Positions 9,917 to 54,086 of a stretch of DNA of 64,000 nucleotides are shown here, in pieces. The DNA comes from Minisyncoccota bacterium. GTDB taxonomy: Bacteria; Patescibacteriota; Minisyncoccia; Phycocordibacterales; UBA9973. A model generated the notes under the pieces. It was not told the origin of the DNA, did not search any database, and was given only the letters and a program-made list of their open reading frames with translations. The DNA lies in the NCBI GenBank assembly GCA_017991395.1, contig JAGOQQ010000006.1, forward strand, positions 66 through 64,065. The letters run 5' to 3'. Every line of letters begins with the position of its first letter. Position 1 is the first letter of the stretch. Position numbers and translations under genes: made by a program.

Positions 9917-9919
9917 TCG

Positions 9920-11505: not shown

Positions 11506-11548
11506 TGGGGTAGTGAGTAGTAAGTAGGTAGTAATAAGTAGGGATTTT

Positions 11549-12214: not shown

Positions 12215-12231
12215 AGTTTAAATAAGGAAAA

Positions 12232-12672
12232 TTACAAATCGATCTTGCCAAGTCTACGGACATGTCGTTCCTCTTCAGAAAAAGGTGTCTCAAGCCACAT
12301 TTTGATCGCATACAATGCTTCATCTTCGGGCATCATTCGTGCACCGAGAGAGAGGATGTTTGCGTCGTTGTGTTCACGCGAAAGACGAATGATGTCGATA
12401 TTTCCACCGTAGTAGACTACAGCGCGCGCTTTGGGAGTTCTATTTGCAACAATTGCTTCGCCTTGCCCACTCGCCCCAAAAATAATTCCTTTTGATTCAA
12501 AATCACCTGCCACAGCCTCCGCAACCGGTCTGATAAAATCCGGATAGTCATCATCCATATCAAGTGTAGTCGCCCCAAGATCAACAACTTCATACCCATC
12601 AAGAATGAGTTGGTCTTTTACTTTCTCTTTGAGGTCAAAACCTGCATGATCTGTGCCTAAATATATTTTCAT
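12232..12672 (-). CDS. rpiB: Ribose-5-phosphate isomerase B
   Basis: MKIYLGTDHAGFDLK... RpiB/LacAB family N-terminus; 146 aa. Confidence 0.85.
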   Translation of the reverse strand: MKIYLGTDHAGFDLKEKVKDQLILDGYEVVDLGATTLDMDDDYPDFIRPVAEAVAGDFESKGIIFGASGQGEAIVANRTPKARAVVYYGGNIDIIRLSREHNDANILSLGARMMPEDEALYAIKMWLETPFSEEERHVRRLGKIDL

Positions 12673-12692
12673 AAAATATGTATAAAAAACTT

Positions 12693-12953
12693 TTAACTAG
12701 AGTGTTTAATGTCTTCGTAGCTTAGTGTCGCATTGACTCCATAAGAAAATGTACCGTTGTCTGCTTCTTCTTTTAACACCTTGATGTCATTTATCGAATT
12801 AATCTCCACAATTTTCCCTATGAATACTTTCCCATCCTGCACAAATTCAACAGTGTTTCCAACTTGAAGTTTTTCAAAATCTTGAATTTCAAAATCAGTA
12901 AATGGGTACCCATTTTTCTTTTCCAATACATCTATTTCAGGCATTTTTTCCAT
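12693..12953 (-). CDS. Hypothetical small protein (86 aa)
   Basis: ORF with plausible spacing; no recognisable domain. Confidence 0.4.
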   Translation of the reverse strand: MEKMPEIDVLEKKNGYPFTDFEIQDFEKLQVGNTVEFVQDGKVFIGKIVEINSINDIKVLKEEADNGTFSYGVNATLSYEDIKHSS

Positions 12954-12974
12954 GTCTATATTTTACCTCAAAAC

Positions 12975-13000
12975 AAAAAATACCCGAAATCGGGTATTTT
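12975..13000 (-). terminator. Rho-independent terminator downstream of gap
   Basis: atacccgaaatcgggtat hairpin with flanking A/T runs, just 3' of the minus-strand gap gene. Confidence 0.6.
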
Positions 13001-13004
13001 AATT

Positions 13005-14063
13005 CTAAATTGTCTTCCCTGTCTTAATCACATGATCCACGAGTGTATACGTATATCCCATTTCATTATCATACCAACCCATTACTTTGACCAAGTTACC
13101 ATCTACTACACGAGTCATTTCGAGATCTGCGATTGATGCATGAGATTCACCGAGAATATCAGATGACACGAGAGGTTCTTCGGTGATTGCAAATATCTTT
13201 GACCACTTCGGATCTTGCGCTGCTTTTTTGAGAATTGCATTCACCTCTTGTGCAGTTGTATTTTTCTTTGAAATAAATGTGATGTCCACAATTGATCCCG
13301 CAGGTACAGGCACGCGAATAGAAATACCATCAAATTTGTCTGTGAGTTCTGGAAATGCTTTGGTCACGGCAATCGCTGCACCTGTAGATGAAGGAACAAT
13401 GTTTTGTGCTGCTGCACGTCCTTCACGTAAATCTTTTTTACTTGGACCATCAACAAGAGCTTGCGATGCCGTATATCCGTGGACAGTGTTTAGAATTGCT
13501 TTTTCGATACCGAGAGCTTCGTGGAGAATTGCAATCAAAGGTGACGCCGCGTTTGTAGTACACGATGCGTTTGAAGTGATATCACAAGTACCAAATTTGT
13601 CTTCATTTACACCAAGTAAAATTGTCTCACCTTGGACACTTCCGTCACTACCCTTTGCAGGCGCAGAAATAACAACTTTCTTCGCACCTTGATCGAGATG
13701 GAATTTTGCTTTATCAAATGCAGTGAAAAGTCCTGTTGACTCCACCACTACATCCACACCAAGCTCTTTCCATGGAAGTTTTGTAGAATCTTTTTCAGAT
13801 ACGAAGCGTACTTTTTTGCCATCGATTACGAGATAGTGTTCTGCACTGTCGGGATTGCTCGGATCTGTCGATGTACCGTGGACTTCAACTTTGCGGTGCC
13901 AGTTTCGGTAGACAGTGTCATGACGCAAAAGATACGCCAGGCTTTCGATTGAACCAAGATCATTGATTGCGACAATTTCAATTTCAGGTCGCTCCCATGC
14001 GATCTTAAGAAACGCGCGCCCTATTCGACCAAAACCGTTGATTGCTACTTTGATTGTGTTCAT
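13005..14063 (-). CDS. gap: Glyceraldehyde-3-phosphate dehydrogenase, type I
   Basis: INGFGRIGR Rossmann motif and the SNASCTTN catalytic Cys motif. Start set at MNTIKVAINGFG. Confidence 0.9.
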   Translation of the reverse strand: MNTIKVAINGFGRIGRAFLKIAWERPEIEIVAINDLGSIESLAYLLRHDTVYRNWHRKVEVHGTSTDPSNPDSAEHYLVIDGKKVRFVSEKDSTKLPWKELGVDVVVESTGLFTAFDKAKFHLDQGAKKVVISAPAKGSDGSVQGETILLGVNEDKFGTCDITSNASCTTNAASPLIAILHEALGIEKAILNTVHGYTASQALVDGPSKKDLREGRAAAQNIVPSSTGAAIAVTKAFPELTDKFDGISIRVPVPAGSIVDITFISKKNTTAQEVNAILKKAAQDPKWSKIFAITEEPLVSSDILGESHASIADLEMTRVVDGNLVKVMGWYDNEMGYTYTLVDHVIKTGKTI

Positions 14064-14120
14064 ATTGATATATTGTAGCAAAAAAAATTCCACGCACTAA
14101 ATTTCCGTATAGAATGAATC

Positions 14121-14575
14121 TTTCCCCGCCTGCCAAGGAGGGGCGACGCAAGGCGACGGGGGTGGTTTATTGCCTTTCTTCAAGTACCCTTCTAATATTC
14201 TCCAAAACCGACTCAAGGTTTGTATTTATTTCAGCATTTGTAAAACGAACCACAGAGATACCTTGCGATTGAAAAAATTCACTTCTTACCCTGTCATGCT
14301 CCATTGCTTCTTTGTCAAAATGTTGGACGCCATCAATCTCAACGACTACTCTTTTTTCTGAACAATAAAAATCAGCAATATATCTTCCAATACTGTGCTG
14401 TCTTCTAAGCTTGTAGCCAATTTTTGAATTTTTAATTCTACTCCACATTATCAATTCTTGTGGAGTCATACTATTTCTGAGATTCTTTCTTTGTTCTTTT
14501 AATTTTGTAAGATTATTTATTCTCATACACCACCCCGTCACTTCGTGACACCCCTCCTTGGCAGGTGGGGAAAAA
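14121..14575. mobile_element. DUF559 nuclease gene bracketed by ~46-nt imperfect terminal inverted repeats (candidate miniature selfish element)
   Basis: The upstream arm 14121-14166 and the reverse complement of the downstream arm 14527-14575 are ~85% identical (TTTCCCCnCCTGCCAAGGAGGGG...GACGGGGTGGT). The arms share tcacttcgtg + CCTCC hairpin motifs with other repeats in the window. Confidence 0.35.
14167..14526 (-). CDS. DUF559 domain protein (Vsr/restriction-endonuclease-like fold)
   Basis: LRRQ..IGRYIADF...VVVEIDG.QH......D..R...L...G..V.RF.N.E pattern of DUF559. Start set at the internal Met so the gene does not overlap the inverted repeat. Confidence 0.7.
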   Translation of the reverse strand: MRINNLTKLKEQRKNLRNSMTPQELIMWSRIKNSKIGYKLRRQHSIGRYIADFYCSEKRVVVEIDGVQHFDKEAMEHDRVRSEFFQSQGISVVRFTNAEINTNLESVLENIRRVLEERQ

Positions 14576-14584
14576 ATCAAAAAC

Positions 14585-16072
14585 CTACCCTATCAATTCT
14601 TTCAAAATTTTCTGAGCCAGCTGAGGATTTGCACTTCCCTTTGTCTCTTTCATCACTTGTCCCACAAGCGACATCAGTGCATTTTCTTTTCCGCTCTTGT
14701 ACGTAGCCACAACTGCAGGATTCGCATCAATAATTCTCTGTGCGATTTCTTTGAGGGCGCCTTCGTCGTTTTTCTGAATAAGATCATTCTTTTTTGCATA
14801 CTCAAGTGGATCAACATCATCAGAATAACAACCATTTATAATCTCCTTCATTTGAGGGGCAGAACATTGTCCATCTTTTTTCAAGTTTTGAATGATTTGC
14901 AACTTTGATGGACTTAAAAATCCATACCAATAATTCTGATCTATACTATTATTCTTTTGCTCTGAGATTGGGATTAACACATTTACAACCATGTTTATTG
15001 CAGAAATTAAATCCTCATTAACATTTGAAATTCCATATAGTTCAATTAACTCATCAAGGTACTTACTTTTTTTAATATCAAATACAAAAATATCAATTAT
15101 TTTTTCGATTTCTGCTTTGTCCCATCCAGCTTCATCTTTGTTGTCAAAATAATGACTCCAAATTTTCTGATATCTTGTTCTTATTTGTGATGGCAATTCT
15201 GGCAAGCTTGCTTTAAGTGCATCCATATCAAACACTTCTTTCAAAACAAGCTTTGGCAAATCTGGATCTGGGAAATACCGATAGTCGTGACTATCTTCTT
15301 TTTTTCGCTGAGAAAATGTAGTTTGTTTTGATTCGTCCCATCCGCGAGTTTCCTGAACAATTTCACTTTGTCGTCCCGCCTCATACAAATCTTGCATTCG
15401 AGCAAGTTCGTATTTTATTGCGCGTTCTACGCTTCGAAATGAATTGAGGTTTTTTACTTCTACTTTTGTGCCAAATTTGTCAGGATTGTCAGACAAAGAA
15501 ATATTTGCCTCCACGCGCATTTCACCTTTTTCCATATTTGCTTCTGACACACCGAGATACTGAAGAAGAAGCTGAAGTTCTCGTCCAAAGTTTGCCGCCT
15601 GCTCTGCACTGTGAATCACAGGCTCAGTCACAAGCTCCATGAGTGGCACGCCTGCGCGATTGTAGTCTACAAGTGAATAGTCACCTCTATCGTGTTTTGA
15701 ATTTCCAGTATCTTCTTCGAGGTGTACACGTGTAATTTGCACGCCAGCAAGCTCACCACCACTTACGATGGGAAATTTGTACTGCGAAATCTGATACCCT
15801 TTTGGAATATCTGGGTAGAAATAATTTTTTCGATCAAATTCTGTAAAATCTGTGGCAATAGTTGCATTGACTGCAAGACCTACCTTGATTACATTTTCTA
15901 CCGCTTGTTTGTTGATCACAGGCAGAGTCCCTGGATGCGCCATACATACCGGACAAATATTCACGTTTGGTCGCTCTTCGTTGGGATCATTTTTGCATCC
16001 ACAAAACATCTTTGAGCGAGTACTCATCTCTGCGTGGATTTCAAGACCAATTGTTGGATAGTAGTTTTTCAT
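14585..16072 (-). CDS. gatB: Asp-tRNA(Asn)/Glu-tRNA(Gln) amidotransferase subunit B
   Basis: IGLEIHAEM..SKMFCGC... N-terminus and a YqeY-like C-terminal domain. At 495 aa it is somewhat longer than typical because of an internal insertion. Confidence 0.9.
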   Translation of the reverse strand: MKNYYPTIGLEIHAEMSTRSKMFCGCKNDPNEERPNVNICPVCMAHPGTLPVINKQAVENVIKVGLAVNATIATDFTEFDRKNYFYPDIPKGYQISQYKFPIVSGGELAGVQITRVHLEEDTGNSKHDRGDYSLVDYNRAGVPLMELVTEPVIHSAEQAANFGRELQLLLQYLGVSEANMEKGEMRVEANISLSDNPDKFGTKVEVKNLNSFRSVERAIKYELARMQDLYEAGRQSEIVQETRGWDESKQTTFSQRKKEDSHDYRYFPDPDLPKLVLKEVFDMDALKASLPELPSQIRTRYQKIWSHYFDNKDEAGWDKAEIEKIIDIFVFDIKKSKYLDELIELYGISNVNEDLISAINMVVNVLIPISEQKNNSIDQNYWYGFLSPSKLQIIQNLKKDGQCSAPQMKEIINGCYSDDVDPLEYAKKNDLIQKNDEGALKEIAQRIIDANPAVVATYKSGKENALMSLVGQVMKETKGSANPQLAQKILKELIG

Positions 16073-43887: not shown

Positions 43888-44526
43888 ATGAAAAACAAAC
43901 AATTAGTTTCCCGAAAAGAAACCCAAACTGAGTCTAAGTACATTTTGGCATTTGAGAATTTGATTAAAAAAGATTACTGCAAGTTCAAACATTTTCTAAA
44001 TCAAAAGACGCACTGCGATCAGCTCTCAGATGACATATTGCAAGAAGCAAGTATAAAAGCACTCAAGGCACTGAGAGAGCCTGGAAAGTATGATGAAACC
44101 GGAAATATGAAAAGTTGGTTTTTAAGAATAGTTAATAATGCATTTATTGATTATTTAAGATTTAGCAAAAATATTCCCACACACAATGCGATCAACATTT
44201 CACCAACAGACAAGAGCGCAGAAGATGGGTGGACTACAGCAGTTGCTGACACAAGTGAAATCTTTATGGATTTCCCTGATGATACATCTGACAAATTAGA
44301 TGAAATTATGCAGGATGAACTTTCCAACAAAGTATTGACTGCGATTTCAAAACTACCGAAAGCTCAGCGAGAAGTCATATTCTATCGACACGTGAGACAG
44401 CTTAGTTTCAAAGAAATTGCCGAAATAACGGGAGTTTCAATTAACACATGTTTAGGCAGAATGCGATATGCGCTGATAAACATCAGAAAGACACTTGGGC
44501 TTGATAGGATACTTATAAAAGAATAG
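43888..44526 (+). CDS. ECF-type RNA polymerase sigma factor (sigma-70 regions 2 and 4)
   Basis: Region 2 (...FLRIVNNAFIDYLR) and a region 4 HTH (LPKAQREVIFYRHVRQLSFKEIAEITGVSINTCLGRMRYAL). Confidence 0.75.
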   Translation: MKNKQLVSRKETQTESKYILAFENLIKKDYCKFKHFLNQKTHCDQLSDDILQEASIKALKALREPGKYDETGNMKSWFLRIVNNAFIDYLRFSKNIPTHNAINISPTDKSAEDGWTTAVADTSEIFMDFPDDTSDKLDEIMQDELSNKVLTAISKLPKAQREVIFYRHVRQLSFKEIAEITGVSINTCLGRMRYALINIRKTLGLDRILIKE

Positions 44527-44538
44527 AAATTTAAAGCA

Positions 44539-44567
44539 AAAAGACTGCGGTGTACGCAGTCTTTTTT
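44539..44567 (+). terminator. Rho-independent terminator after the ECF sigma gene
   Basis: aagactgcg gtgta cgcagtctt + T7. Confidence 0.75.
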
Positions 44568-44595: not shown

Positions 44596-44656
44596 TTCCG
44601 CGTGATGTCCGCGTCTGTCTGCGACTATTGCTGGGGTCTTTGAGCTAGAACCGTGG
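44596..44656. repeat. TCCGCGT boxes followed by the block TTGCTGGGGT-CTTTGAGCTAG-AACCGTGG shared with the tRNA-Gln 3' flank
   Basis: TTGCTGGGGT (10 nt) and CTTTGAGCTAG (11 nt) also occur within 30 nt of each other at 53389-53417, where TTGCTGGGGT is the 3' end of tRNA-Gln. Confidence 0.55.
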
Positions 44657-44776
44657 ACAACCAAGCCCTGTAAGATTAATTACCAAGGTTCGTATATTAA
44701 ATTATGAGAAGCGGGATTTATTGCTCTGTTTGAAGAGTAAAATTTTATTGAAGAATAAAATTATATTATTGACGAA

Positions 44777-45358
44777 TTAGTACTGATCAAATTGTGAAAG
44801 ATCAACATCACTTGCACTCGCAGTACCGCCAGTCACTTCATTCAATGTTACTTCCCATCCTGCTGACTGCGTAGCTGTCGTCTCAAACTCAAATGTCTCA
44901 TCGAATGCAGAGGCGTGAGCATTTCGATTGAATTTCTGCGTAGATGCATTCCAATCTGTACCTTGTGCAAATGCAAGCCAATATGTACCGTCATCTATAT
45001 TTTCCATCGTGTAAGTACTGTTAGCTTTGATATATACAGTAAGTACTGAGGCGCCGTCACGAATCAATTTTGCCACCGCGTCATAGCTAGTTCCATTACT
45101 AATTTGCAATTGTCCCTCACCTTGCAAGTACGCACTTTGTTTCTTCAAGACAGTACCAGTCGGAAGCGAATTTCCTGGCGTAAGATCTGGAACCTGTACT
45201 GTCTCTTGTTGTGATTGTGTTACTGTCGAAGGAGTTGGCAAAGGTGATGATATGTCGGTGTCTTCCATGGCACCCCAAATAATCAAACCAACAACAATTA
45301 GCCAGAACCACCAGCGAGCCACAAACCGTAGAACGTCTTTTATTGATAAGTTTTGCAT
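44777..45358 (-). CDS. Hypothetical exported/membrane-anchored protein (193 aa)
   Basis: N-terminal TM (WWFWLIVVGLIIWGA), then a S/T/Q-rich linker and a beta-rich domain; no homology. Confidence 0.45.
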   Translation of the reverse strand: MQNLSIKDVLRFVARWWFWLIVVGLIIWGAMEDTDISSPLPTPSTVTQSQQETVQVPDLTPGNSLPTGTVLKKQSAYLQGEGQLQISNGTSYDAVAKLIRDGASVLTVYIKANSTYTMENIDDGTYWLAFAQGTDWNASTQKFNRNAHASAFDETFEFETTATQSAGWEVTLNEVTGGTASASDVDLSQFDQY

Positions 45359-45364
45359 AAAATA

Positions 45365-45685
45365 TTAATCATTATTCTTATAATGTTTTGGCGACCTAAA
45401 AAACAGAACAGCCGCTACGATATCTACAACGGACCAAAGGAAATAACCAAAATATAGTGGATTGATTGGATTAAAAACAATAGCAATACCGATCATAATC
45501 AACATCCATCTCTTATTCTTTTCTTTATGATAAAGATACACAGAGAATACAGCCGATCCAAAAACCACAAGCTTCAACGCTTGGTAAAAGAAATAAGGCC
45601 AGATTGGAATTACAGCAACAAGCAAAACAATAGCCGCAATTTTTGAGAATAATATTCGATATTCGCTTTGCTCCTTAGTTACCAT
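45365..45685 (-). CDS. Small three-TM membrane protein (106 aa)
   Basis: Three hydrophobic helices; no homology. Confidence 0.4.
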   Translation of the reverse strand: MVTKEQSEYRILFSKIAAIVLLVAVIPIWPYFFYQALKLVVFGSAVFSVYLYHKEKNKRWMLIMIGIAIVFNPINPLYFGYFLWSVVDIVAAVLFFRSPKHYKNND

Positions 45686-45690
45686 ATAAT

Positions 45691-46770
45691 TTACGATCGT
45701 TCTAAATCACCAAATTGACTATAGTAGGCAATTTCCTCGATTGAAATCGAAGGAGTAAACTTTTTGATTGCATTAATCAACATTTTTTCATTGACCATTT
45801 GCTCATCCTCTAATACTGCCGCACGAGCCGCTTCGGTTACGATAAGCTCAATATCTGACCCTACGTAGTTATCAGACATCTTAGCGAGCTTTTCAAAATC
45901 AATTTTTTTATCATACGGTCGACCTGAAAGACAGATTTTAAACAAGTCTCTCCTTGCTTCTAGATCTGGTGGTCCAACAAATATACGCTTGTCCATTCGT
46001 CCAGATCGTAAGATTGCCGTGTCGATCATGTGAGGACGGTTTGTAGCTCCCACAACTAAGATTTTACTACTACCAGCATTGTTAAGCTGAAGGAGAAACT
46101 CGTTGATTTCTTCTTTCTTAATATCTGCGGATGAACTGAGTTCTTCTCGCTTTGGGATAAGACCCTCGATCTCATCAATAAAGACAATGGATGGTGCCTG
46201 CAGTCTTGCCATCTCAAAGACTTTGCCAATATTTCCAACGGCACCGTGCACATATGATGTGGCGACCGAAGATGGGTTCATTTCTATAAAACTGTACCCA
46301 AGTTGTTCAGCCAACTTTTTAACAATAAAGGTCTTTCCACATCCAGGAGGTCCGAACAACAAGATACCGTTAGGGATACCTAGCTTAAATTTCTTATACT
46401 TCTCTGGATTCATGAGTGGTTCAATTACATCATTCATAAGCATTGCTTTGAGGGGTCTCATTCCAGCAACACAATCAAAACCCCGCAAGACAGTAAGGTC
46501 ATCGATGATTGCGGTAATCTTGTCGTGAGAATGTTCGTCAGTTATAACACCAAGGTATTTTTTACCGCTTATTTCGAGATGTACGAGATCGTACTTTTGA
46601 CTACGATCAATAATCTCATCCTGTTGGATGTTGGTAAATAAATAGAGGAACTTATCATTTGAAAGCGAATACACCTCAGTGAAAAAAATCTTTTCTACAC
46701 GAGCAACCACACTCAATTTATCTTTGAGTTTGTAACCTGGGTGTAAAAGTGGTTTTGTTGTATTTGTCAT
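45691..46770 (-). CDS. Classic-clade AAA ATPase (single AAA domain, Cdc48/FtsH-ATPase-like) with ~150-aa N-terminal domain
   Basis: Walker A LLFGPPGCGKTF, Walker B IVFIDEIE, SRH ILVVGATNRPHMIDTAILRSGRMDKRIF. Start set at MTNTT so that the 46781-47650 gene is not overlapped. Confidence 0.8.
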   Translation of the reverse strand: MTNTTKPLLHPGYKLKDKLSVVARVEKIFFTEVYSLSNDKFLYLFTNIQQDEIIDRSQKYDLVHLEISGKKYLGVITDEHSHDKITAIIDDLTVLRGFDCVAGMRPLKAMLMNDVIEPLMNPEKYKKFKLGIPNGILLFGPPGCGKTFIVKKLAEQLGYSFIEMNPSSVATSYVHGAVGNIGKVFEMARLQAPSIVFIDEIEGLIPKREELSSSADIKKEEINEFLLQLNNAGSSKILVVGATNRPHMIDTAILRSGRMDKRIFVGPPDLEARRDLFKICLSGRPYDKKIDFEKLAKMSDNYVGSDIELIVTEAARAAVLEDEQMVNEKMLINAIKKFTPSISIEEIAYYSQFGDLERS

Positions 46771-46780
46771 ATATTTATAT

Positions 46781-47650
46781 TTAATAAGGTTCTGTACATA
46801 TGTATTTACCGCCCTCGACGTAACCGGCATATCTACTATTTCGACCCACATCCTTTTCGCATATTGCATTTATTGATGCTGTACTAACACACGAGTTTCC
46901 CTCAATGTCCCAGTCATATCCATATCCACAATCGCACACTCGTTTTCCATCTTCCGTAGTCGAATAAGCACCAGTTCCGTAACTATTCACACACGACTGA
47001 TTGAACGAGCTAAGGGAATAACATGCAGTTCGCCCGTTATCCCAATAAGAACCAACTTCACAATCACATATGTTTTTTCCTTCAGTAAGATCTACTTTAA
47101 GGAAACTTGTCCCTGGCCACTGTGAAGCACAGCTTTCATCACGTGCAACTGTAAATTTTACGCACTGTTGCGAGGTAGCACCTAAAGAATATCCAGCTGC
47201 ACAACCGCAAGAGTTCGTGGCACTATCATATGTTGCGTTGTATCCATTACGCTCCTGGCAAATTTCTAGAGGAGTTTGAACCGCGGGAGTTGTTTGTGTC
47301 TTTTCGGCTACTGGAACGTAGGAATTTGTATTTGTATCTGTCTCTACTTCGACATCTGTTTCTGAAGTATCAAAAATATCATTCAATGATTCGCTATTTG
47401 AGGGTGGAGGCAAAGTATTAGTCGTTGCTGTGCTATTACTATCTCCACTACTGGCGCTTACAGCAATAATAATTATTAAAACTCCAAGAGCAATCGCTCC
47501 TTGTGTCCATTTAACACCATCTGACATTGTTGACTCATCAACCGTCGATTTATGTGACGGTTGATGAGACCACTTCTTTTCTGATTTTTTAGGAGCACCT
47601 TCCCCAAGGAAGTCCAAATCAAGTTTTAGTTTTTTATCTTTATGCTCCAT
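46781..47650 (-). CDS. Single-pass membrane protein with extracytoplasmic Cys-rich repeats (C-x-C-x2-GY-x-W motif x3)
   Basis: N-terminal cytoplasmic K..L.LDFLGEG motif, TM (AIALGVLIIIIAV), S/T-rich linker, then repeats CGCAAGYSL.., CDCEVGSYWDNGRTAC, CDCGYGYDWDIEGNSC. Confidence 0.5.
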   Translation of the reverse strand: MEHKDKKLKLDLDFLGEGAPKKSEKKWSHQPSHKSTVDESTMSDGVKWTQGAIALGVLIIIIAVSASSGDSNSTATTNTLPPPSNSESLNDIFDTSETDVEVETDTNTNSYVPVAEKTQTTPAVQTPLEICQERNGYNATYDSATNSCGCAAGYSLGATSQQCVKFTVARDESCASQWPGTSFLKVDLTEGKNICDCEVGSYWDNGRTACYSLSSFNQSCVNSYGTGAYSTTEDGKRVCDCGYGYDWDIEGNSCVSTASINAICEKDVGRNSRYAGYVEGGKYICTEPY

Positions 47651-47655
47651 AGTTT

Positions 47656-48369
47656 TTATTCAAATAATCCACTGGCAATGACCAATACGTAGAAAATTGC
47701 AGGCGCAACAACGAACCAGAATATACCCCGACCATTCTGCACATGCATGACTTTTTTCACACCCTGATAACTAATATAAATTGAGTAGATGATTGCCAAG
47801 AGAGAAAGAATTCCAAAGATAACATCCACACTGGATGCTTCTGAATAATAGAAATAAAAATAATCACTGCCGTAAGCAATGTGATTAAGGAGTAGAGAAC
47901 CAATAGCTGTCACTGAAATTGGGAGAGAAGAAAAAGTATAGATATTTCGGGCTGTGTCGATAGTGCCAGATCCTTTTGACCATCCAACTCGAACATGATA
48001 GAACCAACCACCGATGTAATAAGCAATTGCTCCAGATAAGATACCTCCAAATAGAGCAATCGCCCAAACTTCACCCCAACTAGAGGATTCAGAGCTAGTA
48101 AATCGATCCGCTGCACTTCCAATACCGAGAATCCAAATCGCCAAAAGTAGGTATTTTGGATTAGACGTAACCAGATGTTTCTGTGCGAATTCGCTAAAGT
48201 TTGTAAAGCAGTCTTTAAAATACTCAAAGAATTTAACTCTATCTGAACGAGGAACAGGCATATGCTTTGGGGTTACGATTGGAATACTAGTTTGCTCCCC
48301 AGCTTTTTGTGGACTTTTGTCTAAGAAATCAAAATTTAAAGATTTTTTCTCGTTCATATATTTATCCAA
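47656..48369 (-). CDS. Polytopic membrane protein (5 predicted TMs) with N-terminal SLNFDFLDKS motif
   Basis: Hydrophobicity pattern; the N-terminal motif resembles that of the neighbouring 46781-47650 protein. Confidence 0.45.
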   Translation of the reverse strand: MDKYMNEKKSLNFDFLDKSPQKAGEQTSIPIVTPKHMPVPRSDRVKFFEYFKDCFTNFSEFAQKHLVTSNPKYLLLAIWILGIGSAADRFTSSESSSWGEVWAIALFGGILSGAIAYYIGGWFYHVRVGWSKGSGTIDTARNIYTFSSLPISVTAIGSLLLNHIAYGSDYFYFYYSEASSVDVIFGILSLLAIIYSIYISYQGVKKVMHVQNGRGIFWFVVAPAIFYVLVIASGLFE

Positions 48370-49957
48370 AGATTGCTCCTAAAACAATTATAATAATGAT
48401 CCGTACAACCCAGCCGATTACACTCGACCTTGTGTTCTCTGCTTTTTTATTTTTGATCACTTCACCAAGCCCTACGTAATAGTAGGAATTGAGAAGGATC
48501 TTAATTGCCATCTGCTCCCAGCGTTCATCGAATGCCTCATCGATTTTCTTCAACATCTTATTTTGAACCTCATCCACTTCACTTGCATTATCCGCAGTAA
48601 GAACCTTAACGTTGTTTTTAATCAAATCTAGCCAGGAGTCGATTACGCTCTTGTCTACATCATAAATTTCAATGTGTTCATACACAATCGATGCTGATTT
48701 TTGAAGTCCAGGTCGAGCCTCGTCGTATTTATCAGCTTCAAATAGCTTCTTCGCCTCAACGAACTCGACCACAGCATACATCGTAACAGCTTCCTTTTTC
48801 TTGCTATCCATCGCATTTTTAAATTCTGAATCTTTGCTCTCAGCCTTCTTTTGGTCTATCAGTGCTATCGCTTCTTGGAACTTCTTCTCATTCATGAGTT
48901 CCATGATTGGAGCTGTTGCACTCAAAAACTTTTTATTTTCTTCAAATTGGTCGAGATCCTGCTTAAGCTTGTTTTCCATCCCAGATGTACCAACAAACTG
49001 CATGGCAATCTTTAGAAGTTGCTCAGCTTTGGGCATATCGTCCAAATTATTGTGGATATCAAGAACAACAGAACGTATCGCACCCGCCGCTCGGTCACGT
49101 ATCGTTTTTGATTGACTGTCATCATATAGACCCAGATCGATCAGCTTGTTGCAACAATCTTGGATTTTTCCGATATGTTCTTTGATATCTGAAGCTTCTT
49201 GTGCATCAAGGTCACCATCCTCTGAAACCTTCATTGCCTCGAGCTTCTCGACTGCTTCTGTAATCTCCTGAAATATAGGAGCCATTACAACTTTCTCAGT
49301 CTTTTCTCCACGAAGATCAAATACTTTAGTAAATTCAGCTATGTAACTTCCATCCTCTCGAGAATGGCTAATCTCTGTATAAAGATCAGATAGAAATGAG
49401 GGCACCTGTTTATGAAAATCAGAGATGACTTCTTGATCGGTATCAAGCTCATCGTTATGTTTATATACTTTTGTGAAAGCTGTCCAGAATTTTGATGAGT
49501 TAGTAAGCTCATGCCAGATTTTTAAAGACTCTTTTAGATATCGCTTATTGTCTTCTTTGAAAAGTAGGATGCAATACAAAAGCGCTAGATTCTTTTTATA
49601 AAACATCGCCTTTGTAGTATCACTTTCGGAATTATGTTCCCAAACCCTTATAGCTCCTTCTGGATCTTTCTTACGAAGAATACCAACCGCCTGTTCGTCT
49701 ATGTCATCAGAAATATGAAACCAGAAGAAATAATCCTTAATCTGCTTCTTTGGTGAAGAGAGTTTTTGAACAGCGTCCTTTATCGCACCTTCCGTTCGAA
49801 AGTTATCGAACACGCACATATCTAGGTCGTATTCTGGAGTATCATCAATTTGGAGAAACTTTACAATTTCCTTTGCCCGTTTCTGCGTATCTCGTTGTGA
49901 GGCCGACGTGTCGAGACCGAGAATGTGATATGCATTATTTTTTAGTAGGTTTGACAT
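48362..49957 (-). CDS. Tail-anchored protein with degenerate J-like N-terminus (no HPD) and a large helical domain
   Basis: NAYHILGLDTSASQRDTQKRAKEI resembles J-domain helices I-II, but the HPD tripeptide is absent. C-terminal TM VVRIIIIIVLGAIFG; 531 aa. Confidence 0.45.
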   Translation of the reverse strand: MSNLLKNNAYHILGLDTSASQRDTQKRAKEIVKFLQIDDTPEYDLDMCVFDNFRTEGAIKDAVQKLSSPKKQIKDYFFWFHISDDIDEQAVGILRKKDPEGAIRVWEHNSESDTTKAMFYKKNLALLYCILLFKEDNKRYLKESLKIWHELTNSSKFWTAFTKVYKHNDELDTDQEVISDFHKQVPSFLSDLYTEISHSREDGSYIAEFTKVFDLRGEKTEKVVMAPIFQEITEAVEKLEAMKVSEDGDLDAQEASDIKEHIGKIQDCCNKLIDLGLYDDSQSKTIRDRAAGAIRSVVLDIHNNLDDMPKAEQLLKIAMQFVGTSGMENKLKQDLDQFEENKKFLSATAPIMELMNEKKFQEAIALIDQKKAESKDSEFKNAMDSKKKEAVTMYAVVEFVEAKKLFEADKYDEARPGLQKSASIVYEHIEIYDVDKSVIDSWLDLIKNNVKVLTADNASEVDEVQNKMLKKIDEAFDERWEQMAIKILLNSYYYVGLGEVIKNKKAENTRSSVIGWVVRIIIIIVLGAIFG

Positions 49958-49960
49958 AAA

Positions 49961-52474
49961 TTATTTAGTAATACCAGACATGTTACCTTGTATCATTTTC
50001 TGCTCGCTCGGTGGAAGAAGGAGCATCAGGTTGTGTACCGACCTTTTAAGTTCTTCAACATCGCCAAGCTCAAGGGCACGCTGTCCTTTATTCATGTAGT
50101 ATTCAGCCTCTTTCGGACTTGTCCAAGTATGACTTGTTTCCTTTATCTTATTGAACATATAGACCCATGATGCAGGATTTGAGAAAAGTGCCTTGTGATT
50201 GAGTTCTTGAAGCTGTTCCAATGAACGGCTGAGCATTACCTTATCCTCTTTACCAATAGCTAGATCAGCTTCATCCTTGATCACACGTAACTGGTCTTCG
50301 TACATTGTTTTTTCTGTCTGTTCACTCCATTCACTAATAATTCCTTCTACACTTTTTACCTTCTCTTCGTATTCTGATTTAAGCTGTGGAAACTCTTTCA
50401 TCTTTTCGAGACCATCAAGCCGGATTTTAAGATCTTTAAGTTGCTTATCAGCCTTTCGTTTTTCATCCTCATCCACTTTTGCAGTTGATAGACTTCCTTC
50501 AAGAGATTGCACTAGATTCTGAATTTTACCTTTCTCTTCTGGAGTACATGATTGCTCGACTTTTTTCGCGCGCTCGCTCTGCTCCTTGAGCTGTGTCTCC
50601 ATTTCTTCGACACTCAAATTTTCTGCATGGATTGTCGCACGTGCACTAAATGTGAGATCAATCGACGGAATAAACGCCTCTGCCCTAACTTCACGAGATT
50701 CGTTCACCTCGATTGTAAGTGCAATTTCTGTACCTTCTGGTAGATCATATGGGAGTTTTTCTCCTGTCACTTTGAGGTCACAAATGAATTGATTCTGATC
50801 TGGCACAGCTGATTCACCTTCACGGATTTTGATTGGGAGCGCGTTCTCCTTTTCACCCTTGGCAAGCGGTTTAAGTGTCTTATATGTATGTGTAGCTTTG
50901 AGGGGAAGAATACTATTTTTCTCAAAAATCACTTCAAACTCCTCGGTCATAGCAAAGCTAGCACCACTGAATCCACGCTTTACAACTCCCACTCCTATGG
51001 AGTGTGGTATCGGTGCACCAGATACTGAAAGACCGTGCGTTATAGAGAACGCCTCTGGTTCGGTTTTGATCGGGTTCCCTTCTGCGTCAAACATATAAAT
51101 CCAAAAGAGAGTAGTTTTGTTTTTATCGAGATTTACAGTTTCAATAAATTTACCGTTCTTGAGTTTAATTTTCTTTCCGCTAAAGAGTCCTCCTTCGCTC
51201 TGTATTTGAATAAAGTATTCTTCTTCTGTATCCTTAAGCTCTTCTACGACTCCGGTTATAGTCTCTTCGGTTTCAGAAGTTAGTGATTCATAGTTGAGAC
51301 GCAAGGTTTTAATTGAGGAATCAGTTAACTTTTTTGACTCAAGAAATTCCTTTGGAATCTTCTGACTCACGGCATAGATACATGCACCACGCGCAACAAC
51401 TGTTAATGGATCAGACGAAGTGTCTACTTCTATCTTCAAGTCTTTTTCCAAACGATCTTTTACGTACGGAATCATAGTAGGTCCGCCAACAAGTACAATC
51501 CTTGAGATGGATGATTGCTTCACTCCAGCCTCCTTAATGGTCTCCTTACTCAATTCAACAGTTTTATCGACAAACGGTTTAATCAGCTTTTCGAAATCTT
51601 TACGGGTAAAAGGTATAGTAAGATATATTTCCTTGCCATTGTCATCATCACCAATCTTTTCAACCTCGATAATTATTTCATCAGTTTGAGAAAGTGAAAT
51701 CTTTGCCGTCTCTGCATAGTATTTTAGCTTTGCAAACACACTACGATATTTTTTACTACTACGAGTAAAGTCTTCGATTTCATACTTTTCTAGAATAGCT
51801 GGTACGATGACCTTATCCACAACAGTCCAATCGAAATCTTTACCACCAAGAAAGTTGTCTCCATTATGTCCTAGTACAGAAAGTGCACCGTCTTTTGACG
51901 AAATGAGGGCCACATCAAACGTACCACCTCCTAAGTCATACACGAGCCAGTTTTCATTCTGAGAATTCATAAAACCGTAAGCTATCGCCGCCGCTATCGG
52001 TTCTTGTATCAAAACCACATGCTTGAAACCTGCGACATTACCCGCACGCTTAGTGGCTTCCGCCTGAAGGGTTGAGAAATATGCAGGTATTGTAATAACG
52101 ACACCAGTAGTTGGTGTGCCAGGATATTTCCGCAAAACATCCTCCTTGAGACTCTTTAAAATCTCCCCGGAGATTTCTTCTGGGGACATATCTTCGCCAA
52201 GGCGATCGAAATGAACAGTGTCCGAAGTTCCCATCAAGCGCTTTACCTCTGCCTTGTTATTTGAAAATTCTTCTTCCGATGCGTCCTTATAGAGACGCTC
52301 ATAAGATCGTTTACCAACGATCTTGTTTTTTGCTTTGTCTACGCCAAAAACCGATGGTGTGTACTCGTCATTAAAAATATTTTTAACAACCTCCACATGG
52401 TCTTTATTGTTTGCTGCAACTTCGGAATTTGTTGTTCCTAAGTCGATGCCAATCTGTATGTTTTGGTTGTTCAT
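49961..52474 (-). CDS. Atypical Hsp70-family ATPase (837 aa): canonical NBD, ~100-aa insertion, SBD-beta-like domain, extended helical/coiled-coil C-terminus
   Basis: Phosphate-1 IGIDLGTTNSEVA, phosphate-2 VYDLGGGTFDVALIS and adenosine IVLVGGPTMIPYV motifs. The SBD-beta-like segment (IPHSIGVGVV...ILPLKATHTYKT...EIALTIEVNESREVRAEAF) follows an insertion after ARGACIYAVSQ. There is no EEVD tail. Confidence 0.8.
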   Translation of the reverse strand: MNNQNIQIGIDLGTTNSEVAANNKDHVEVVKNIFNDEYTPSVFGVDKAKNKIVGKRSYERLYKDASEEEFSNNKAEVKRLMGTSDTVHFDRLGEDMSPEEISGEILKSLKEDVLRKYPGTPTTGVVITIPAYFSTLQAEATKRAGNVAGFKHVVLIQEPIAAAIAYGFMNSQNENWLVYDLGGGTFDVALISSKDGALSVLGHNGDNFLGGKDFDWTVVDKVIVPAILEKYEIEDFTRSSKKYRSVFAKLKYYAETAKISLSQTDEIIIEVEKIGDDDNGKEIYLTIPFTRKDFEKLIKPFVDKTVELSKETIKEAGVKQSSISRIVLVGGPTMIPYVKDRLEKDLKIEVDTSSDPLTVVARGACIYAVSQKIPKEFLESKKLTDSSIKTLRLNYESLTSETEETITGVVEELKDTEEEYFIQIQSEGGLFSGKKIKLKNGKFIETVNLDKNKTTLFWIYMFDAEGNPIKTEPEAFSITHGLSVSGAPIPHSIGVGVVKRGFSGASFAMTEEFEVIFEKNSILPLKATHTYKTLKPLAKGEKENALPIKIREGESAVPDQNQFICDLKVTGEKLPYDLPEGTEIALTIEVNESREVRAEAFIPSIDLTFSARATIHAENLSVEEMETQLKEQSERAKKVEQSCTPEEKGKIQNLVQSLEGSLSTAKVDEDEKRKADKQLKDLKIRLDGLEKMKEFPQLKSEYEEKVKSVEGIISEWSEQTEKTMYEDQLRVIKDEADLAIGKEDKVMLSRSLEQLQELNHKALFSNPASWVYMFNKIKETSHTWTSPKEAEYYMNKGQRALELGDVEELKRSVHNLMLLLPPSEQKMIQGNMSGITK

Positions 52475-52486
52475 AAAATATATTTC

Positions 52487-53008
52487 TTAGTTACTTAATA
52501 ATATAATCTTGGCCTTTTTTACGACCTGACCTTTAACCAAAATCGTTGGCTCAACAGTTTCCTTTACCATAGGCATTGTCACAGCAGTGTCTTTCTCCAC
52601 CGAGAGAACATCAAGATTCAATCCGTCATTGAATTTCTGATTGGTATAATCAACAATCTCAATGTCATAATTAGAGATATACCGTCTAAACTTGAGAACG
52701 GAATTCTCTAGACCTTTTCGTTGGTTTTCTTGAAGACTGTCGGCAATTTTTAATAATCGTTGTTCAACGCGCCATACTTCTGTTGCGAGTTCAACAAGCT
52801 CAGTAACACTTGTTGAAAGATTTATAGACTTGGGAGCTACTGCATATTTAATTTCATCGCTAATCTTTTTGTAAAGTTCATCAAATTTATCTGAACCTTC
52901 TGTACTCTTACCTGATTTACGGCTAAGTACATAGAGAAATGCAAAAAGAAAAAAGATCGCAATTACGAGGACGAGTATAAATATTGGATTTAAAAATATG
53001 GTATTCAT
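52487..53008 (-). CDS. Membrane-anchored GrpE-like protein
   Basis: N-terminal TM (ILVLVIAIFFLFAFLYVL), helical segment ELATEVWRVEQRLLKIADSLQEN (cf. GrpE ...LLPVIDSLERAL) and a C-terminal beta-domain-like DIEIVDYTNQKFNDGLNLDVLSVE...VKGQVVKKAKIIL. Weaker than a canonical GrpE match. Confidence 0.45.
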   Translation of the reverse strand: MNTIFLNPIFILVLVIAIFFLFAFLYVLSRKSGKSTEGSDKFDELYKKISDEIKYAVAPKSINLSTSVTELVELATEVWRVEQRLLKIADSLQENQRKGLENSVLKFRRYISNYDIEIVDYTNQKFNDGLNLDVLSVEKDTAVTMPMVKETVEPTILVKGQVVKKAKIILLSN

Positions 53009-53009
53009 T

Positions 53010-53282
53010 TTATTTCATCAACTCGTCAGTAGGAACATCTACCACTTTAGCTAATTTAGCAATGGTTGCGAGAGTGGTATTTGTCTTACCATTCTCAATA
53101 TTACTTATGAAGCTTCGACTAACCTCAAGTTCCCGAGCAATATCACCCTGAGAGATATTCTTTGCTATTCGGATATGCTTAAGGTTATTACCTAATTTTT
53201 CTGAATCACTTTTCATGATCTCACTATACGCTCTGTTATAGTTTAACACAACAGTATCGTATAGTGTACTACTGTCTATCAA
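53010..53282 (-). CDS. XRE-family helix-turn-helix transcriptional regulator
   Basis: HTH_XRE pattern LKHIRIAKNISQGDIARELEVSRSFISNIENGK; first gene of the co-directional block. Confidence 0.8.
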   Translation of the reverse strand: MIDSSTLYDTVVLNYNRAYSEIMKSDSEKLGNNLKHIRIAKNISQGDIARELEVSRSFISNIENGKTNTTLATIAKLAKVVDVPTDELMK

Positions 53283-53299
53283 TCAATATAGACACGAAC

Positions 53300-53328
53300 A
53301 AAAACGCACCCAATCGGGTGCGTTTTTG
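53300..53328 (-). terminator. Hairpin terminator between tRNA-Gln and the XRE gene (aaaacgcaccc aatc gggtgcgtttt)
   Basis: 10-bp stem with T/A runs on both sides; it could end the tRNA-Gln transcript. Confidence 0.55.
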
Positions 53329-53388
53329 TTCTGGATACTGCTCTCAGCAGGTATGCAATTTCAGTATGGATTTTCCTGATTAGTTCTA

Positions 53389-53417
53389 TCTTTGAGCTAG
53401 CTCAACTTTGCTGGGGT
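53389..53417. repeat. Block TCTTTGAGCTAG..TTTGCTGGGGT at the tRNA-Gln 3' end (partner of 44628-44656)
   Basis: See 44596-44656; TTGCTGGGGT forms the acceptor 3' strand plus flank of tRNA-Gln. Confidence 0.55.
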
Positions 53418-53481
53418 ACATGGATTCGAACCACGATTAAAGGCTTCAAAGGCCTCTGTCCTACCATTAGACGATACCCCA
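53411..53481 (-). tRNA. tRNA-Gln (anticodon TTG)
   Basis: The reverse complement gives TGGGGTATCGTCTAATGGTAGGACAGAGGCCTTTGAAGCCTTTAATCGTGGTTCGAATCCATGTACCCCAG. U1-A72 acceptor pair, anticodon loop CTTTGAA. Closely resembles E. coli tRNA-Gln. CCA is not encoded. Confidence 0.85.
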
Positions 53482-53532: not shown

Positions 53533-53557
53533 CAAAAGCCTGAGGATACGGGCTTTT
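53533..53557. repeat. Hairpin ACAAAAGCCTGAGGATACGGGCTTTT, directly repeated (25/26 nt) at 54086-54110; the two copies flank the transglutaminase-like gene
   Basis: Both copies are terminator-like hairpins (AAAGCC..GGCTTT). One lies 25 nt upstream of the start and one immediately after the stop of the 53583-54086 gene. Confidence 0.6.
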
Positions 53558-53582
53558 GTTTTCTTTTGTTATAATTACAATT

Positions 53583-54086
53583 ATGGAAAAAACACCTTTA
53601 GAAAATGATTCTATCGTAACACTCAACGACGCAATCAGGTCACTTCAAAATAAAAACCTTGAGATGTATGATGCGGTCAACGAAACACGAAATCTTATTT
53701 ATTCTCACCGTCAATCACTCGGGCACACTGTTCAACCAAAATCGATCATGGAATCACGCTTCATGCCAGCCAAAGAAGCATTTGAAAAAGGAATGGCAAG
53801 CTGTGGTGTAACTGCAAATATCTCAGCAACGATTCTTCGAGAACTCGGGTTTCAAGTAAAATTGATTCATGGTGAATCAGAGGATTCTGTTGATCACGCA
53901 TGGATTGCTGTACTCAACAAAGACACAAACGAGTGGGACCAATTTGATCTGACACGAGAAGACCTCAGTATTCCAGAAACTCACAAAGTAAAAGAAATGG
54001 TTTACTCATTCGAAGATATCAGAGAACAAATTGAAAACGACCACAAAACTCTTCGTCAAAGAAGAAAAGAAAGAGGTTTTGAATAA
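53583..54086 (+). CDS. Transglutaminase-like (papain-fold Cys-His-Asp) protein
   Basis: GMASCGVTANISATILRELGF (Cys), DHAWIAV (His) and WDQFDLT (Asp) in the order and spacing of transglutaminase-like domains. Start set at ATG 53583; the track uses an upstream alternative start. Confidence 0.5.
   Translation: MEKTPLENDSIVTLNDAIRSLQNKNLEMYDAVNETRNLIYSHRQSLGHTVQPKSIMESRFMPAKEAFEKGMASCGVTANISATILRELGFQVKLIHGESEDSVDHAWIAVLNKDTNEWDQFDLTREDLSIPETHKVKEMVYSFEDIREQIENDHKTLRQRRKERGFE

Follow-up and report, generated by a model that had tools for sequence, protein, structure and literature searches.

A distinct subfamily of Hsp70-like proteins with an FN3/Ig-like insert, encoded beside GrpE-like, J-like and AAA+ genes

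In DnaK, residue R167 pairs with Asp35 in the HPD motif of DnaJ, and R151 together with the VLLLD interdomain linker relays the J and substrate signal. E. coli HscC is a specialised, non-essential Hsp70 with dedicated membrane-anchored class C partners, and the mitochondrial presequence translocase-associated motor (PAM) consists of mtHsp70, Pam18, the HPD-less J-like Pam16 and Mge1, with BiP/Sec63 as its counterpart in the endoplasmic reticulum. We report here on an 837-aa Hsp70-like protein, and on the operon around its gene, in a 64,000-nt stretch of contig JAGOQQ010000006.1 from a Minisyncoccota bacterium of the Patescibacteria (hereafter the window; its first letter is position 1 of all coordinates, unless another contig is named).

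Many paralogs that carry the Hsp70 nucleotide-binding domain (NBD) with added domains of unknown function have been recognised (PMC13580251, PMC8265645). The survey of Myxococcus xanthus Hsp70 proteins includes a 925-aa outlier, MXAN_5323, whose architecture was not defined (PMC8265645), and a FEBS J review of 2026 describes the bacterial 'DnaK derivates' as unexplored (PMC13580251). Conflict systems built on GAP1-N2 GTPases were predicted by Kaur et al. (2020) to include HSP70-GrpE modules, alongside FNIII-repeat proteins that carry a fused DnaJ or TPR (PMC7159879). We found no description in the literature of the Hsp70 architecture or of the gene cassette reported below.

Architecture of the Hsp70-like protein and its subfamily

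The protein represents a distinct Hsp70 subfamily of about 830 aa, characterised by an FN3/Ig-like insert, a connector other than VLLLD, an extended helical lid and a tail of the LLP...GIT type. An original prediction, made from the DNA letters alone, had described an 837-aa Hsp70 at 49961-52474; the coordinates are exact and the peptides that it quoted are all found in the translation, but the gene lies on the minus strand, which had been missed, the plus-strand translation of the same interval being full of stops. The layout that follows combines sequence searches with an AlphaFold2 model of the protein built on 60 homologs (predicted local distance difference test, pLDDT, 85.8; predicted template modelling score, pTM, 0.73).

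49961-52474, minus strand: Hsp70-like protein, 837 aa (ATG open reading frame of 837 codons; stop codon at 49961-49963)
51371-52474, minus strand: NBD, aa 1-368 (Pfam, phmmer and residue mapping)
51311-51370, minus strand: flexible connector KIPKEFLESKK..., aa 369-388 (pLDDT 62-71; below 50 at residues 380-384)
51038-51310, minus strand: inserted FN3/Ig-like six-stranded beta-sandwich, aa ~389-479 (predicted structure)
51011-51037, minus strand: conserved connector HGLSVSGAP, aa 480-488, in the place of the VLLLD interdomain linker of DnaK
50639-51010, minus strand: beta-subdomain of the substrate-binding domain (SBD-beta), aa ~489-612 (HMMER, hhalign and Foldseek)
49988-50638, minus strand: helical region, aa ~613-829, lid plus extra helical bundle (nine helices, at aa 622-830 by DSSP of the model; pLDDT 81-93)
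49964-49987, minus strand: disordered C-terminal tail, end of a conserved motif (pLDDT below 50 at residues 830-837)

The NBD is recognised by Pfam HSP70 (PF00012) at aa 8-368 (E = 1e-81; 275.4 bits against a cut-off of 20.6), and a phmmer search of PDB sequences places DnaK NBDs on top (E = 4.7e-58). The residues D8, K70, E171, D194, T199 and D201 (DnaK numbering) are all conserved, with K70, E171, T199 and D201 kept in 78 of 78 full-length representatives. The domain had been called canonical, which stands for the phosphate-1, phosphate-2 and adenosine motifs and for the catalytic site, all intact, but not for the J-domain interface and the allosteric residues. R167, N170 and R151 of DnaK are V154, Q157 and A138 in the window protein; none of the 78 representatives has Arg at the R167 position, 72 have Gln for N170, and Cys, Ser or Ala stands in for R151. 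The signature of canonical allostery (VLLLD linker, R167, N170 and R151) is thus replaced by the connector HGLSVSGAP and the residues V, Q and A. As judged by the family alignment, the residues for ATP hydrolysis are all kept, whereas those that would read the HPD motif are replaced family-wide.

Behind the NBD, which ends near ...ARGACIYAVSQ, about 100 residues had been described as non-homologous sequence, and hhalign finds no similarity of this insert to DnaK, HscA, HscC or the protein's own SBD-beta (P = 0.09-0.47). In the predicted structure it is a separate folded domain, a Greek-key beta-sandwich superposable on FN3 domains, with a pLDDT of ~80-87 within the full model and of 83.6 when predicted alone. 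Its conservation equals that of the NBD (column identity 0.65-0.76, gap-free in 118 homologs), and an alignment with E. coli HscA and HscC shows no such insert in either, as had been stated. Two other accounts of the insert were rejected. An internal duplication of an SBD half is contradicted at the sequence level by the null hhalign result against the protein's own SBD-beta, and a low-complexity linker within a known Hsp70 subfamily, the case that the original prediction had named against itself, is contradicted by the conservation and the confident predicted fold.

The connector that follows the insert is itself well conserved, H480, G481, L482, S483, G486, A487 and P488 being invariant or nearly so, with a pLDDT below 50 at 481-483. 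The SBD-beta proposed after it, on the basis of IPHSIGVGVV and later segments, is found by three methods. HMMER aligned a weak second stretch, aa 513-638, to residues 377-494 of Geobacillus kaustophilus DnaK, within its SBD-beta. A profile alignment of the C-terminal part of the family by hhalign matched aa 489-602 to DnaK 404-488, HscA 400-487 and HscC 360-423 (P ~4e-4 to 1e-3), so that PHSIGV after the connector aligns to PLSLGI of DnaK and PYSLGV of HscC. With Foldseek, full-length structures of DnaK, BiP and Ssb could be aligned to the complete model across 640-790 columns (target TM-score 0.69-0.81), the best values (up to 0.81) being obtained with domain-docked states such as 6eoc. The equivalents of the substrate pocket are invariant or conservatively replaced family-wide: L546 (V436 in DnaK), I548 (I438), Y/F531 (F426) and P524 (P419). 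The weak sequence matches and the full-length structural alignment together identify an SBD-beta and a helical lid of the Hsp70 superfamily; the SBD-beta assignment is genuine and, in the model, NBD, SBD-beta and lid are arranged as in an Hsp70.

The sequence match of the helical region to the DnaK lid is faint, while the Foldseek alignments to full-length DnaK that reach 740-790 columns run across it. The region measures ~220 aa in the model, not the ~330 aa first estimated. EEVD is absent, as had been noted, but the C-terminus carries a different conserved motif, LLPxxEQ...[SA]GI[TR][KR]-COOH, of which L816, L819, P821, G834 and I835 are invariant in close homologs, and whose LLP...GIT type is still recognisable in distant representatives. 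Taken as a whole, the reading of an Hsp70 with a true extra domain between NBD and SBD-beta and an extended helical C-terminus is supported. Two points go beyond it: the size of the family, which is very large, and the place of the gene in a mobile cassette of several genes that brings co-chaperones of its own.

More than 120 full-length homologs of the window protein have 58-96% identity to it. With the C-terminal 469 aa alone as query, 1,080 clusters were found in a 50%-identity library, 684 of them at E <= 1e-10. Full-length members are nearly all 810-850 aa long, their C-terminal module begins at residue 365-390, and the insert profile matches at the same position in 75 of 78 full-length representatives. 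A neighbour-joining (NJ) tree of NBDs was built with DnaK, HscA and HscC of E. coli and a further Hsp70 for comparison; the family, together with its distant representatives, is monophyletic and separate from all four in 100 of 100 bootstraps. The window NBD is 34.5% identical to DnaK, 35.4% to HscA and 34.7% to HscC of E. coli, and HscC is the nearest E. coli paralog in the tree. One homolog of 1,544 aa (P0181) has two insert-bearing Hsp70-like units in tandem, with inserts at aa 378-468 and 1098-1188.

A long relative of the Hsp110/Grp170 kind, acting mainly as an exchange factor or holdase for a canonical DnaK, would share with the window protein the extra length, the extended helical region and the loss of the residues that read the J-domain; the non-hydrophobic connector FSITHGLS, moreover, recalls the HspA4 linker EFSITD (PMC13580251). 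We nevertheless regard this explanation as highly improbable. The insert precedes SBD-beta instead of lying within it, in agreement with the earlier remark that Hsp110 insertions are placed elsewhere, and DnaK and BiP give the top structural matches, with no Hsp110 chain among the 50 matches listed. The protein furthermore has GrpE-like and J-like partners of its own and conserved ATPase residues, and its family is prokaryotic and monophyletic apart from DnaK.

A conserved cassette of partner-like genes

The Hsp70-like gene is part of a tightly packed operon on the minus strand, in which no gap or overlap exceeds 12 nt; the order is XRE, GrpE-like, Hsp70-like, J-like, Yip1 protein, single-pass protein, AAA+, DUF6804 and a 193-aa protein. 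When one genome per species was searched with the C-terminal alignment of the Hsp70-like family, 52 loci were obtained. They represent many Patescibacteria lineages, and some of them are on long contigs labelled Alphaproteobacteria, Omnitrophota, Bacteroidota, Methanoregulaceae, Woesearchaeota and Thaumarchaeota. The Hsp70-like gene has partners in the same order in most of them: a GrpE-like gene directly upstream in 45 of the 52, a J-like gene directly downstream in 46, and an AAA+ gene in 45. In the window the operon and its signals are as follows (TM, transmembrane segment; HTH, helix-turn-helix).

53253-53282, for the minus-strand operon: promoter-like site, upstream of the probable XRE start at ~53216
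53010-53282, minus strand: XRE-family HTH regulator, first operon gene (Pfam HTH_3, E = 9.2e-16; in 11 of 52 loci)
52487-53008, minus strand: GrpE-like nucleotide-exchange factor, 173 aa, with N-terminal TM anchor (Pfam GrpE at family level)
48362-49957, minus strand: J-like adaptor, 531 aa (at the N-terminus a J-like domain that lacks HPD, then a helical domain, and a tail anchor at the C-terminus)
47656-48369, minus strand: Yip1-domain membrane protein, 237 aa (Pfam Yip1, E = 1.2e-12), with the N-terminal tag SLNFDFLD at 48322-48339
46781-47650, minus strand: single-pass membrane protein, 289 aa, with the tag LKLDLDFLG at 47603-47629 and a Ser-rich, Cys-rich ectodomain
45691-46770, minus strand: Cdc48/VAT-like single-domain AAA+ ATPase (359 aa from the likely start; the longest open reading frame extends to 46869)
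45365-45685, minus strand: DUF6804 membrane protein, 106 aa (Pfam, E = 1.9e-19; in 20 of 52 loci)
44777-45358, minus strand: last operon gene, 193 aa, with N-terminal TM (close relatives only, in 6 of 52 loci)
44538-44566, unstranded: bidirectional terminator-like hairpin with a 12-bp stem, after the operon

The XRE protein probably starts at an internal Met near 53216, because its homologs are ~69 aa long. Between this gene and a tRNA-Gln gene lies a perfect 16-bp inverted repeat with a 4-nt loop (GAACAAAAACGCACCC / GGGTGCGTTTTTGTTC, 53296-53331), possibly a terminator of the tRNA or an operator.

Pfam GrpE (PF01025) is matched by 31 of 33 members of the family encoded upstream of the Hsp70-like gene (best E = 2.8e-9). 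The window protein taken alone is below the threshold (14.2 bits against a gathering score of 25.8; E = 0.037, aa 89-169 to profile positions 83-162), and a PDB profile search with the alignment of the GrpE-like proteins returned no GrpE, with chance matches (AlkD-like, E ~0.4) in its stead. Going by the profile match of its family, the upstream gene is a divergent, minimal GrpE. An N-terminal TM is present in 37 of 43 GrpE-like proteins and basic residues come next, so the GrpE domain would be cytoplasmic.

The gene downstream is more difficult to classify. Its product is annotated as hypothetical by all sources and has no Pfam domain. The N-terminal region (NNAYHILGLDTSASQKDILKRSKEI...) gives J-domain matches that are weak but agree with one another: DnaJ is the Pfam family matched by most members, namely 4 of 28 (best E = 0.027), the top PDB match is the J-domain of DNAJC5 (E = 0.37), and hhalign aligns it to helices I-II of E. 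coli DnaJ (P = 0.009); against DjlB, DjlC and HscB, hhalign of the J-like family gave nothing significant (P = 0.33 and 0.68 for DjlB and DjlC). HPD occurs in 1 of 45 proteins, and the loop reads [IV]D[DE]xP[ED]Y[DE]xD. The C-terminal third comes as at least three swappable modules: helical with a tail anchor, as in the window; beta-rich and soluble, with the pattern ...FKNNF.EY..KKIFYKD...NAV.LP.L..AC; or with inserted zinc-ribbon repeats (CxxC...CxxC), in archaeal-labelled loci.

The more distant branches of the family also bear on these two assignments. One protein (P0209, locus L058, 1379-4417) is a fusion that starts with the J-like domain and continues as the Hsp70-like protein. Three distant loci (L060, L061 and L062) have the order J-like, GrpE-like, Hsp70-like, without an AAA+ gene, and in this trio of the distant branches the profile matches reach E = 3e-28 to 6e-12 for the GrpE-like and E = 2e-20 to 1.5e-6 for the J-like proteins. 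At a further locus (L057) a J-like-looking gene lies downstream, with a marginal E = 0.053, and no GrpE-like gene was detected.

The AAA+ protein belongs to the classical clade, with matches to Pfam AAA (PF00004, E = 2e-33) and AAA_lid_3 (E = 5e-10). Its PDB matches are Cdc48, p97 and VAT, with the D1 and D2 domains of Cdc48 each at ~1e-40. The conserved N-domain of ~95 aa has no Pfam or PDB match.

Between the J-like and the AAA+ gene the content of the cassette varies: Yip1-like proteins, single-pass proteins with a Ser-rich ectodomain, and four-TM proteins with a PWxRYWARYLD segment. All of these membrane proteins begin, on the cytoplasmic side, with one common motif (typically KDHLDIDLEFLDK), which a low-complexity linker separates from the first TM. 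The consensus of this tag is ~[KE][DE]HL[DN][IF]DL[EDG]FLD[KE] (tag peptide KDHLDIDLEFLDKK), with the short forms LDxDLxFLD and [L/I]x[I/F/L]D[L/F]xFLD. A strict version of the pattern has 35 matches among the 3,041 open reading frames of the 52 loci, and all 35 fall in the first 45 residues of genes between J-like and AAA+, none elsewhere. A six-frame scan of the window with a looser six-residue core gave coding-frame matches only at the starts of two operon membrane genes; the nine-residue upstream pattern matches the single-pass protein only, with one extra loose match antisense within the Hsp70 gene.

Two groups of loci have no tag genes. In the first (L031, L035 and L043), a TM and a Ser-rich ectodomain are joined to the J-like protein itself. 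In the second, which is archaeal-labelled, there is no membrane partner, and the GrpE-like protein has no TM where its open reading frame was recovered whole (L033, L039 and L050; L040 keeps a hydrophobic N-terminus). From the loci of both groups it follows that membrane tethering and tagged proteins come and go together, as one module added to a core of four soluble proteins.

Mobility and genomic context

A contig from another Patescibacteria metagenome-assembled genome (JBBTRC010000008.1, locus L006) carries at 6099-14600 a sequence with 94.7% nucleotide identity to window positions 53272-44765. The match covers exactly 44765-53272, that is the operon itself, and the rest of the 17 kb of this locus is unlike the window. 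A near-identical copy with unrelated flanks means that the cassette is mobile. In the window, its end adjoins the 3' end of a tRNA-Gln(UUG) gene (53410-53481, minus strand). A degenerate copy of the tRNA 3' end stands at the two ends of the cassette (18 of 25 bases, 44628-44652 against 53408-53432), together with an exact 12-mer (44637-44648 against 53389-53400). These repeats resemble the att sites of a tRNA-targeting island and may be a chance match; in six other tRNA-adjacent loci no tRNA 3'-end repeats of the att type were found, so that the island-at-tRNA reading rests on the window. No integrase lies inside the window cassette and its GC content is uniform.

The immediate neighbours in the window, both on the plus strand, encode a transglutaminase-core protein and an extracytoplasmic-function-type sigma-70 factor (53556-54086 and 43888-44526), and beyond them lie the housekeeping genes dnaX, dusB-like, serS, dprA and topA. 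The transglutaminase-core and sigma-70 genes are not conserved beside the cassette in other loci.

Homologs of the Hsp70-like protein are annotated in the sources as 'molecular chaperone DnaK' or 'Hsp70 family protein'. One could accordingly take it for the housekeeping DnaK, or for an HscC or HscA variant, of fast-evolving Patescibacteria, its extra length being a decoration of the lineage. HscC as the nearest E. coli paralog in the NJ tree, and the lack of any other dnaK, dnaJ or grpE within the 64-kb window, point in this direction. Scores against the equivalog models of DnaK and HscA, both of which are matched through the NBD only, are less than half of their cut-offs, both for DnaK (NF001413, 266.6 against 648; TIGR02350, 263.3 against 822.55) and for HscA (NF003520, 233 against 620; TIGR01991, 221.5 against 708.55), and no isc genes are nearby. 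HscC would have to accommodate the 100-aa insert and ~200 extra C-terminal residues, and it falls outside the clade. R167, N170 and VLLLD are absent, the partner has no HPD, the insert is strongly conserved and folded in the model, and the same architecture is found, on a mobile cassette, in Proteobacteria and archaea. At least one genome, moreover, has the cassette alongside another Hsp70: on locus L050, labelled Thaumarchaeota, a gene at 2545-4587 encodes a further Hsp70 (680 aa, 39% identical to E. coli DnaK over aa 1-506) and lies upstream of the cassette at a distance of ~1.7 kb. A housekeeping role of this kind thus seems to us very unlikely.

The surroundings of the cassette raise a further possibility, namely that it is an anti-phage or conflict system on mobile islands, in which the Hsp70-like, J-like and AAA+ proteins sense or remodel an invader or host protein and the tagged membrane proteins are effectors, for instance by membrane disruption in abortive infection. 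In molecular terms such a system would overlap with the machine proposed below, the difference being one of purpose. In the near-identical copy, the cassette is flanked by an N6/N4 methyltransferase, an RVT_1 reverse transcriptase, an Mrr-type nuclease and an S49 peptidase (4 nt past the last cassette gene). Among the genes that flank 18 diverse loci are those for four serine recombinases, three tyrosine integrases and two TraG proteins, together with methylases (C5 and N6), nucleases (BpuJI and MvaI) and one HEPN protein; the numbers are raw counts. Four distant loci without AAA+ (L057, L058, L060 and L062) are near Ser/Thr kinases, FHA proteins, a giant STAND/WD40 kinase, AbiEii and Mrr, which suggests another, signalling- or conflict-linked context for the trio of Hsp70-like, GrpE-like and J-like proteins. 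A conflict role would also agree with the patchy spread across phyla and domains, with the variability of the modules (swapped C-terminal domains of the J-like protein, differing membrane proteins, an XRE regulator in 11 of the 52 loci) and with the predicted systems of Kaur et al. that contain HSP70, GrpE and DnaJ-fused FNIII proteins (PMC7159879).

Several observations speak against such a role. A comparison with PADLOC-DB 2.0 gave no hit, either for the Hsp70-like, GrpE-like and J-like proteins or for the membrane proteins. The AAA+ protein matches IetA by generic AAA similarity only, well below the IetA/IteA model (NCBIfam NF042959, 114.2 against 510 bits) and much more weakly than it matches Cdc48, and the operon has no gene for a subtilisin-like protein, the IetS partner. 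There is no nuclease or classical toxin domain in the cassette, the archaeal versions are without a membrane effector, and in the window the cassette sits among housekeeping genes with uniform GC. Viral contigs hardly ever carry it: the sole match among 2.9 million IMG/VR contigs is a contig of 62 kb (IMGVR_UViG_3300037483_001825, locus L059) with 74-77% nucleotide identity to the window over 45386-46777 and 47610-53015 and 92% amino-acid identity in the C-terminal part of the Hsp70. This is probably a Patescibacteria contig classed as viral, not a phage, and a viral origin of the cassette is unlikely. We consider the conflict explanation possible, though on balance doubtful; should the cassette prove to be a defence or stress island, a chaperone-based mechanism would be added to that repertoire.

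A putative membrane-associated chaperone machine and its known relatives

The explanation that we put forward, and to which we would give about an even chance, is that the Hsp70-like protein is the central ATPase of a self-contained, mobile, non-canonical Hsp70 system, a dedicated Hsp70/AAA+ machine that would carry out remodelling on the inner side of the membrane. As read from the gene content and the sequence features, the GrpE-like protein, by its N-terminal TM, and the J-like protein, by its C-terminal tail anchor, would hold the Hsp70-like ATPase at the cytoplasmic membrane face. The J-like protein would act as a targeting adaptor through a co-evolved, HPD-independent interface, and the GrpE-like protein would reset the nucleotide state of the Hsp70-like protein. 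The N-terminal tag of the co-encoded membrane proteins may be a handle for the Hsp70-like protein and/or the N-domain of the AAA+ protein: the former could clamp it in the cleft of SBD-beta or by beta-strand addition to the Ig-like insert, and the AAA+ ring could then thread or unfold the engaged polypeptide. The outcome would be an ATP-driven remodelling, extraction or controlled activation of the tagged membrane proteins. Beta-strand addition is a speculation, prompted by the alternating hydrophobic pattern of the tag and the six strands of the insert.

Some of the data weigh against a machine of this kind. Archaeal and some Saccharibacteria loci are without tag-bearing genes, so the core function needs none. 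DnaK prefers basic flanks. The tag is acidic and therefore may not be a client of the SBD at all. The J-domain assignment of the downstream gene depends on weak signals (best E = 0.027 to 0.37), the distant branch without AAA+ makes the AAA+ partnership branch-specific, and flanks rich in recombinase and restriction-modification genes fit a conflict role at least as well as proteostasis. The biological purpose could be that of a mobile membrane proteostasis or stress module, or conflict and defence; the neighbourhoods somewhat favour the latter.

One might go further and speculate that the cassette represents a new class of Hsp70 machine, a mobile, membrane-tethered, tag-reading Hsp70/AAA+ engine, common to the Candidate Phyla Radiation, DPANN and other archaea and Proteobacteria, whose HPD-independent J-like protein co-evolved with the loss of R167 and N170, which would serve as a stress or anti-invader system, and in which the tag might complete an incomplete insert by a donor-strand-like addition. 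In this extended form the proposal appears to us rather unlikely.

The family is of interest beyond this locus. In the usual grammar of Hsp70, an NBD, a VLLLD linker and an SBD are combined with HPD J-domains that R167 reads; here the ATPase and the substrate domain are kept and the coupling is rewritten, an Ig-like domain is added at the allosteric hinge, and an exchange factor, an adaptor and an AAA+ partner of its own come with it. The family can serve as a natural experiment in the rebuilding of Hsp70 allostery. The family is abundant (more than 1,000 clusters at 50% identity) from bacteria to archaea, and is annotated merely as 'DnaK' and hypothetical proteins. With its short tag and a five-component operon that could be reconstituted in vitro, it makes the role of bacterial 'DnaK derivates' (PMC13580251) testable.

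Among described systems, the two papers on bacterial Hsp70 derivates and paralogs (PMC13580251, PMC8265645) define neither this architecture nor its co-chaperones, its AAA+ link or the tag. The CoCoNuT CnuD Hsp70-like proteins (PMC11090510) were considered and rejected: the window locus has no McrBC, and the Walker motifs of CnuD are degenerate. The GAP1-N2 systems are alike in having a non-housekeeping HSP70 with GrpE and DnaJ/FNIII components (PMC7159879), but they are centred on a GTPase, whereas the cassette has none and its FN3-like domain is inside the Hsp70 itself. Hsp110 and Grp170 are Hsp70 relatives that resemble the protein in being long and in having insertions, an extended lid and a modified linker (PMC13580251); they are eukaryotic, however, and their insertions are within SBD-beta and the lid, while here the insert is ahead of SBD-beta. 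HscC with DjlB and DjlC, the nearest E. coli paralog, is similar as a specialised Hsp70 with dedicated partners, and the start of its SBD reads PYSLGV against PHSIGV. It differs in having 556 aa, no insert and a short lid, in that DjlB and DjlC carry HPD J-domains, unlike the J-like protein here, and in that the hscC locus, in contrast to the cassette, is without a GrpE-like or AAA+ gene.

The closest working analogues are the membrane-tethered Hsp70 motors with an HPD-less J-like subunit and the DnaK-DnaJ-GrpE/ClpB bichaperone. In PAM, as proposed here, anchored J and J-like proteins and a GrpE-type factor keep an Hsp70 at the membrane, and Pam16 is a precedent for a J-like protein without HPD; the cassette differs from PAM and Sec63 in being prokaryotic and on the cytoplasmic face, with no translocon component identified, and the homology demonstrated here is that of the generic domains. 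With the DnaK-DnaJ-GrpE/ClpB system it has in common an Hsp70 composed of NBD, SBD-beta and helical lid, GrpE-type and J-type partners, an AAA+ unfoldase and identical catalytic residues. Against DnaK, the Hsp70-like protein has gained the FN3/Ig-like domain, has no VLLLD and has R167, N170 and R151 replaced. The J-like partner is without the HPD, glycine/phenylalanine (G/F) and zinc-finger regions of DnaJ, the GrpE-like protein is minimal and usually membrane-anchored, and the AAA+ protein has a single, Cdc48-like ring in place of the two rings of ClpB. In contrast to the DnaK system, finally, all these components are brought together in one mobile operon with tagged membrane proteins.

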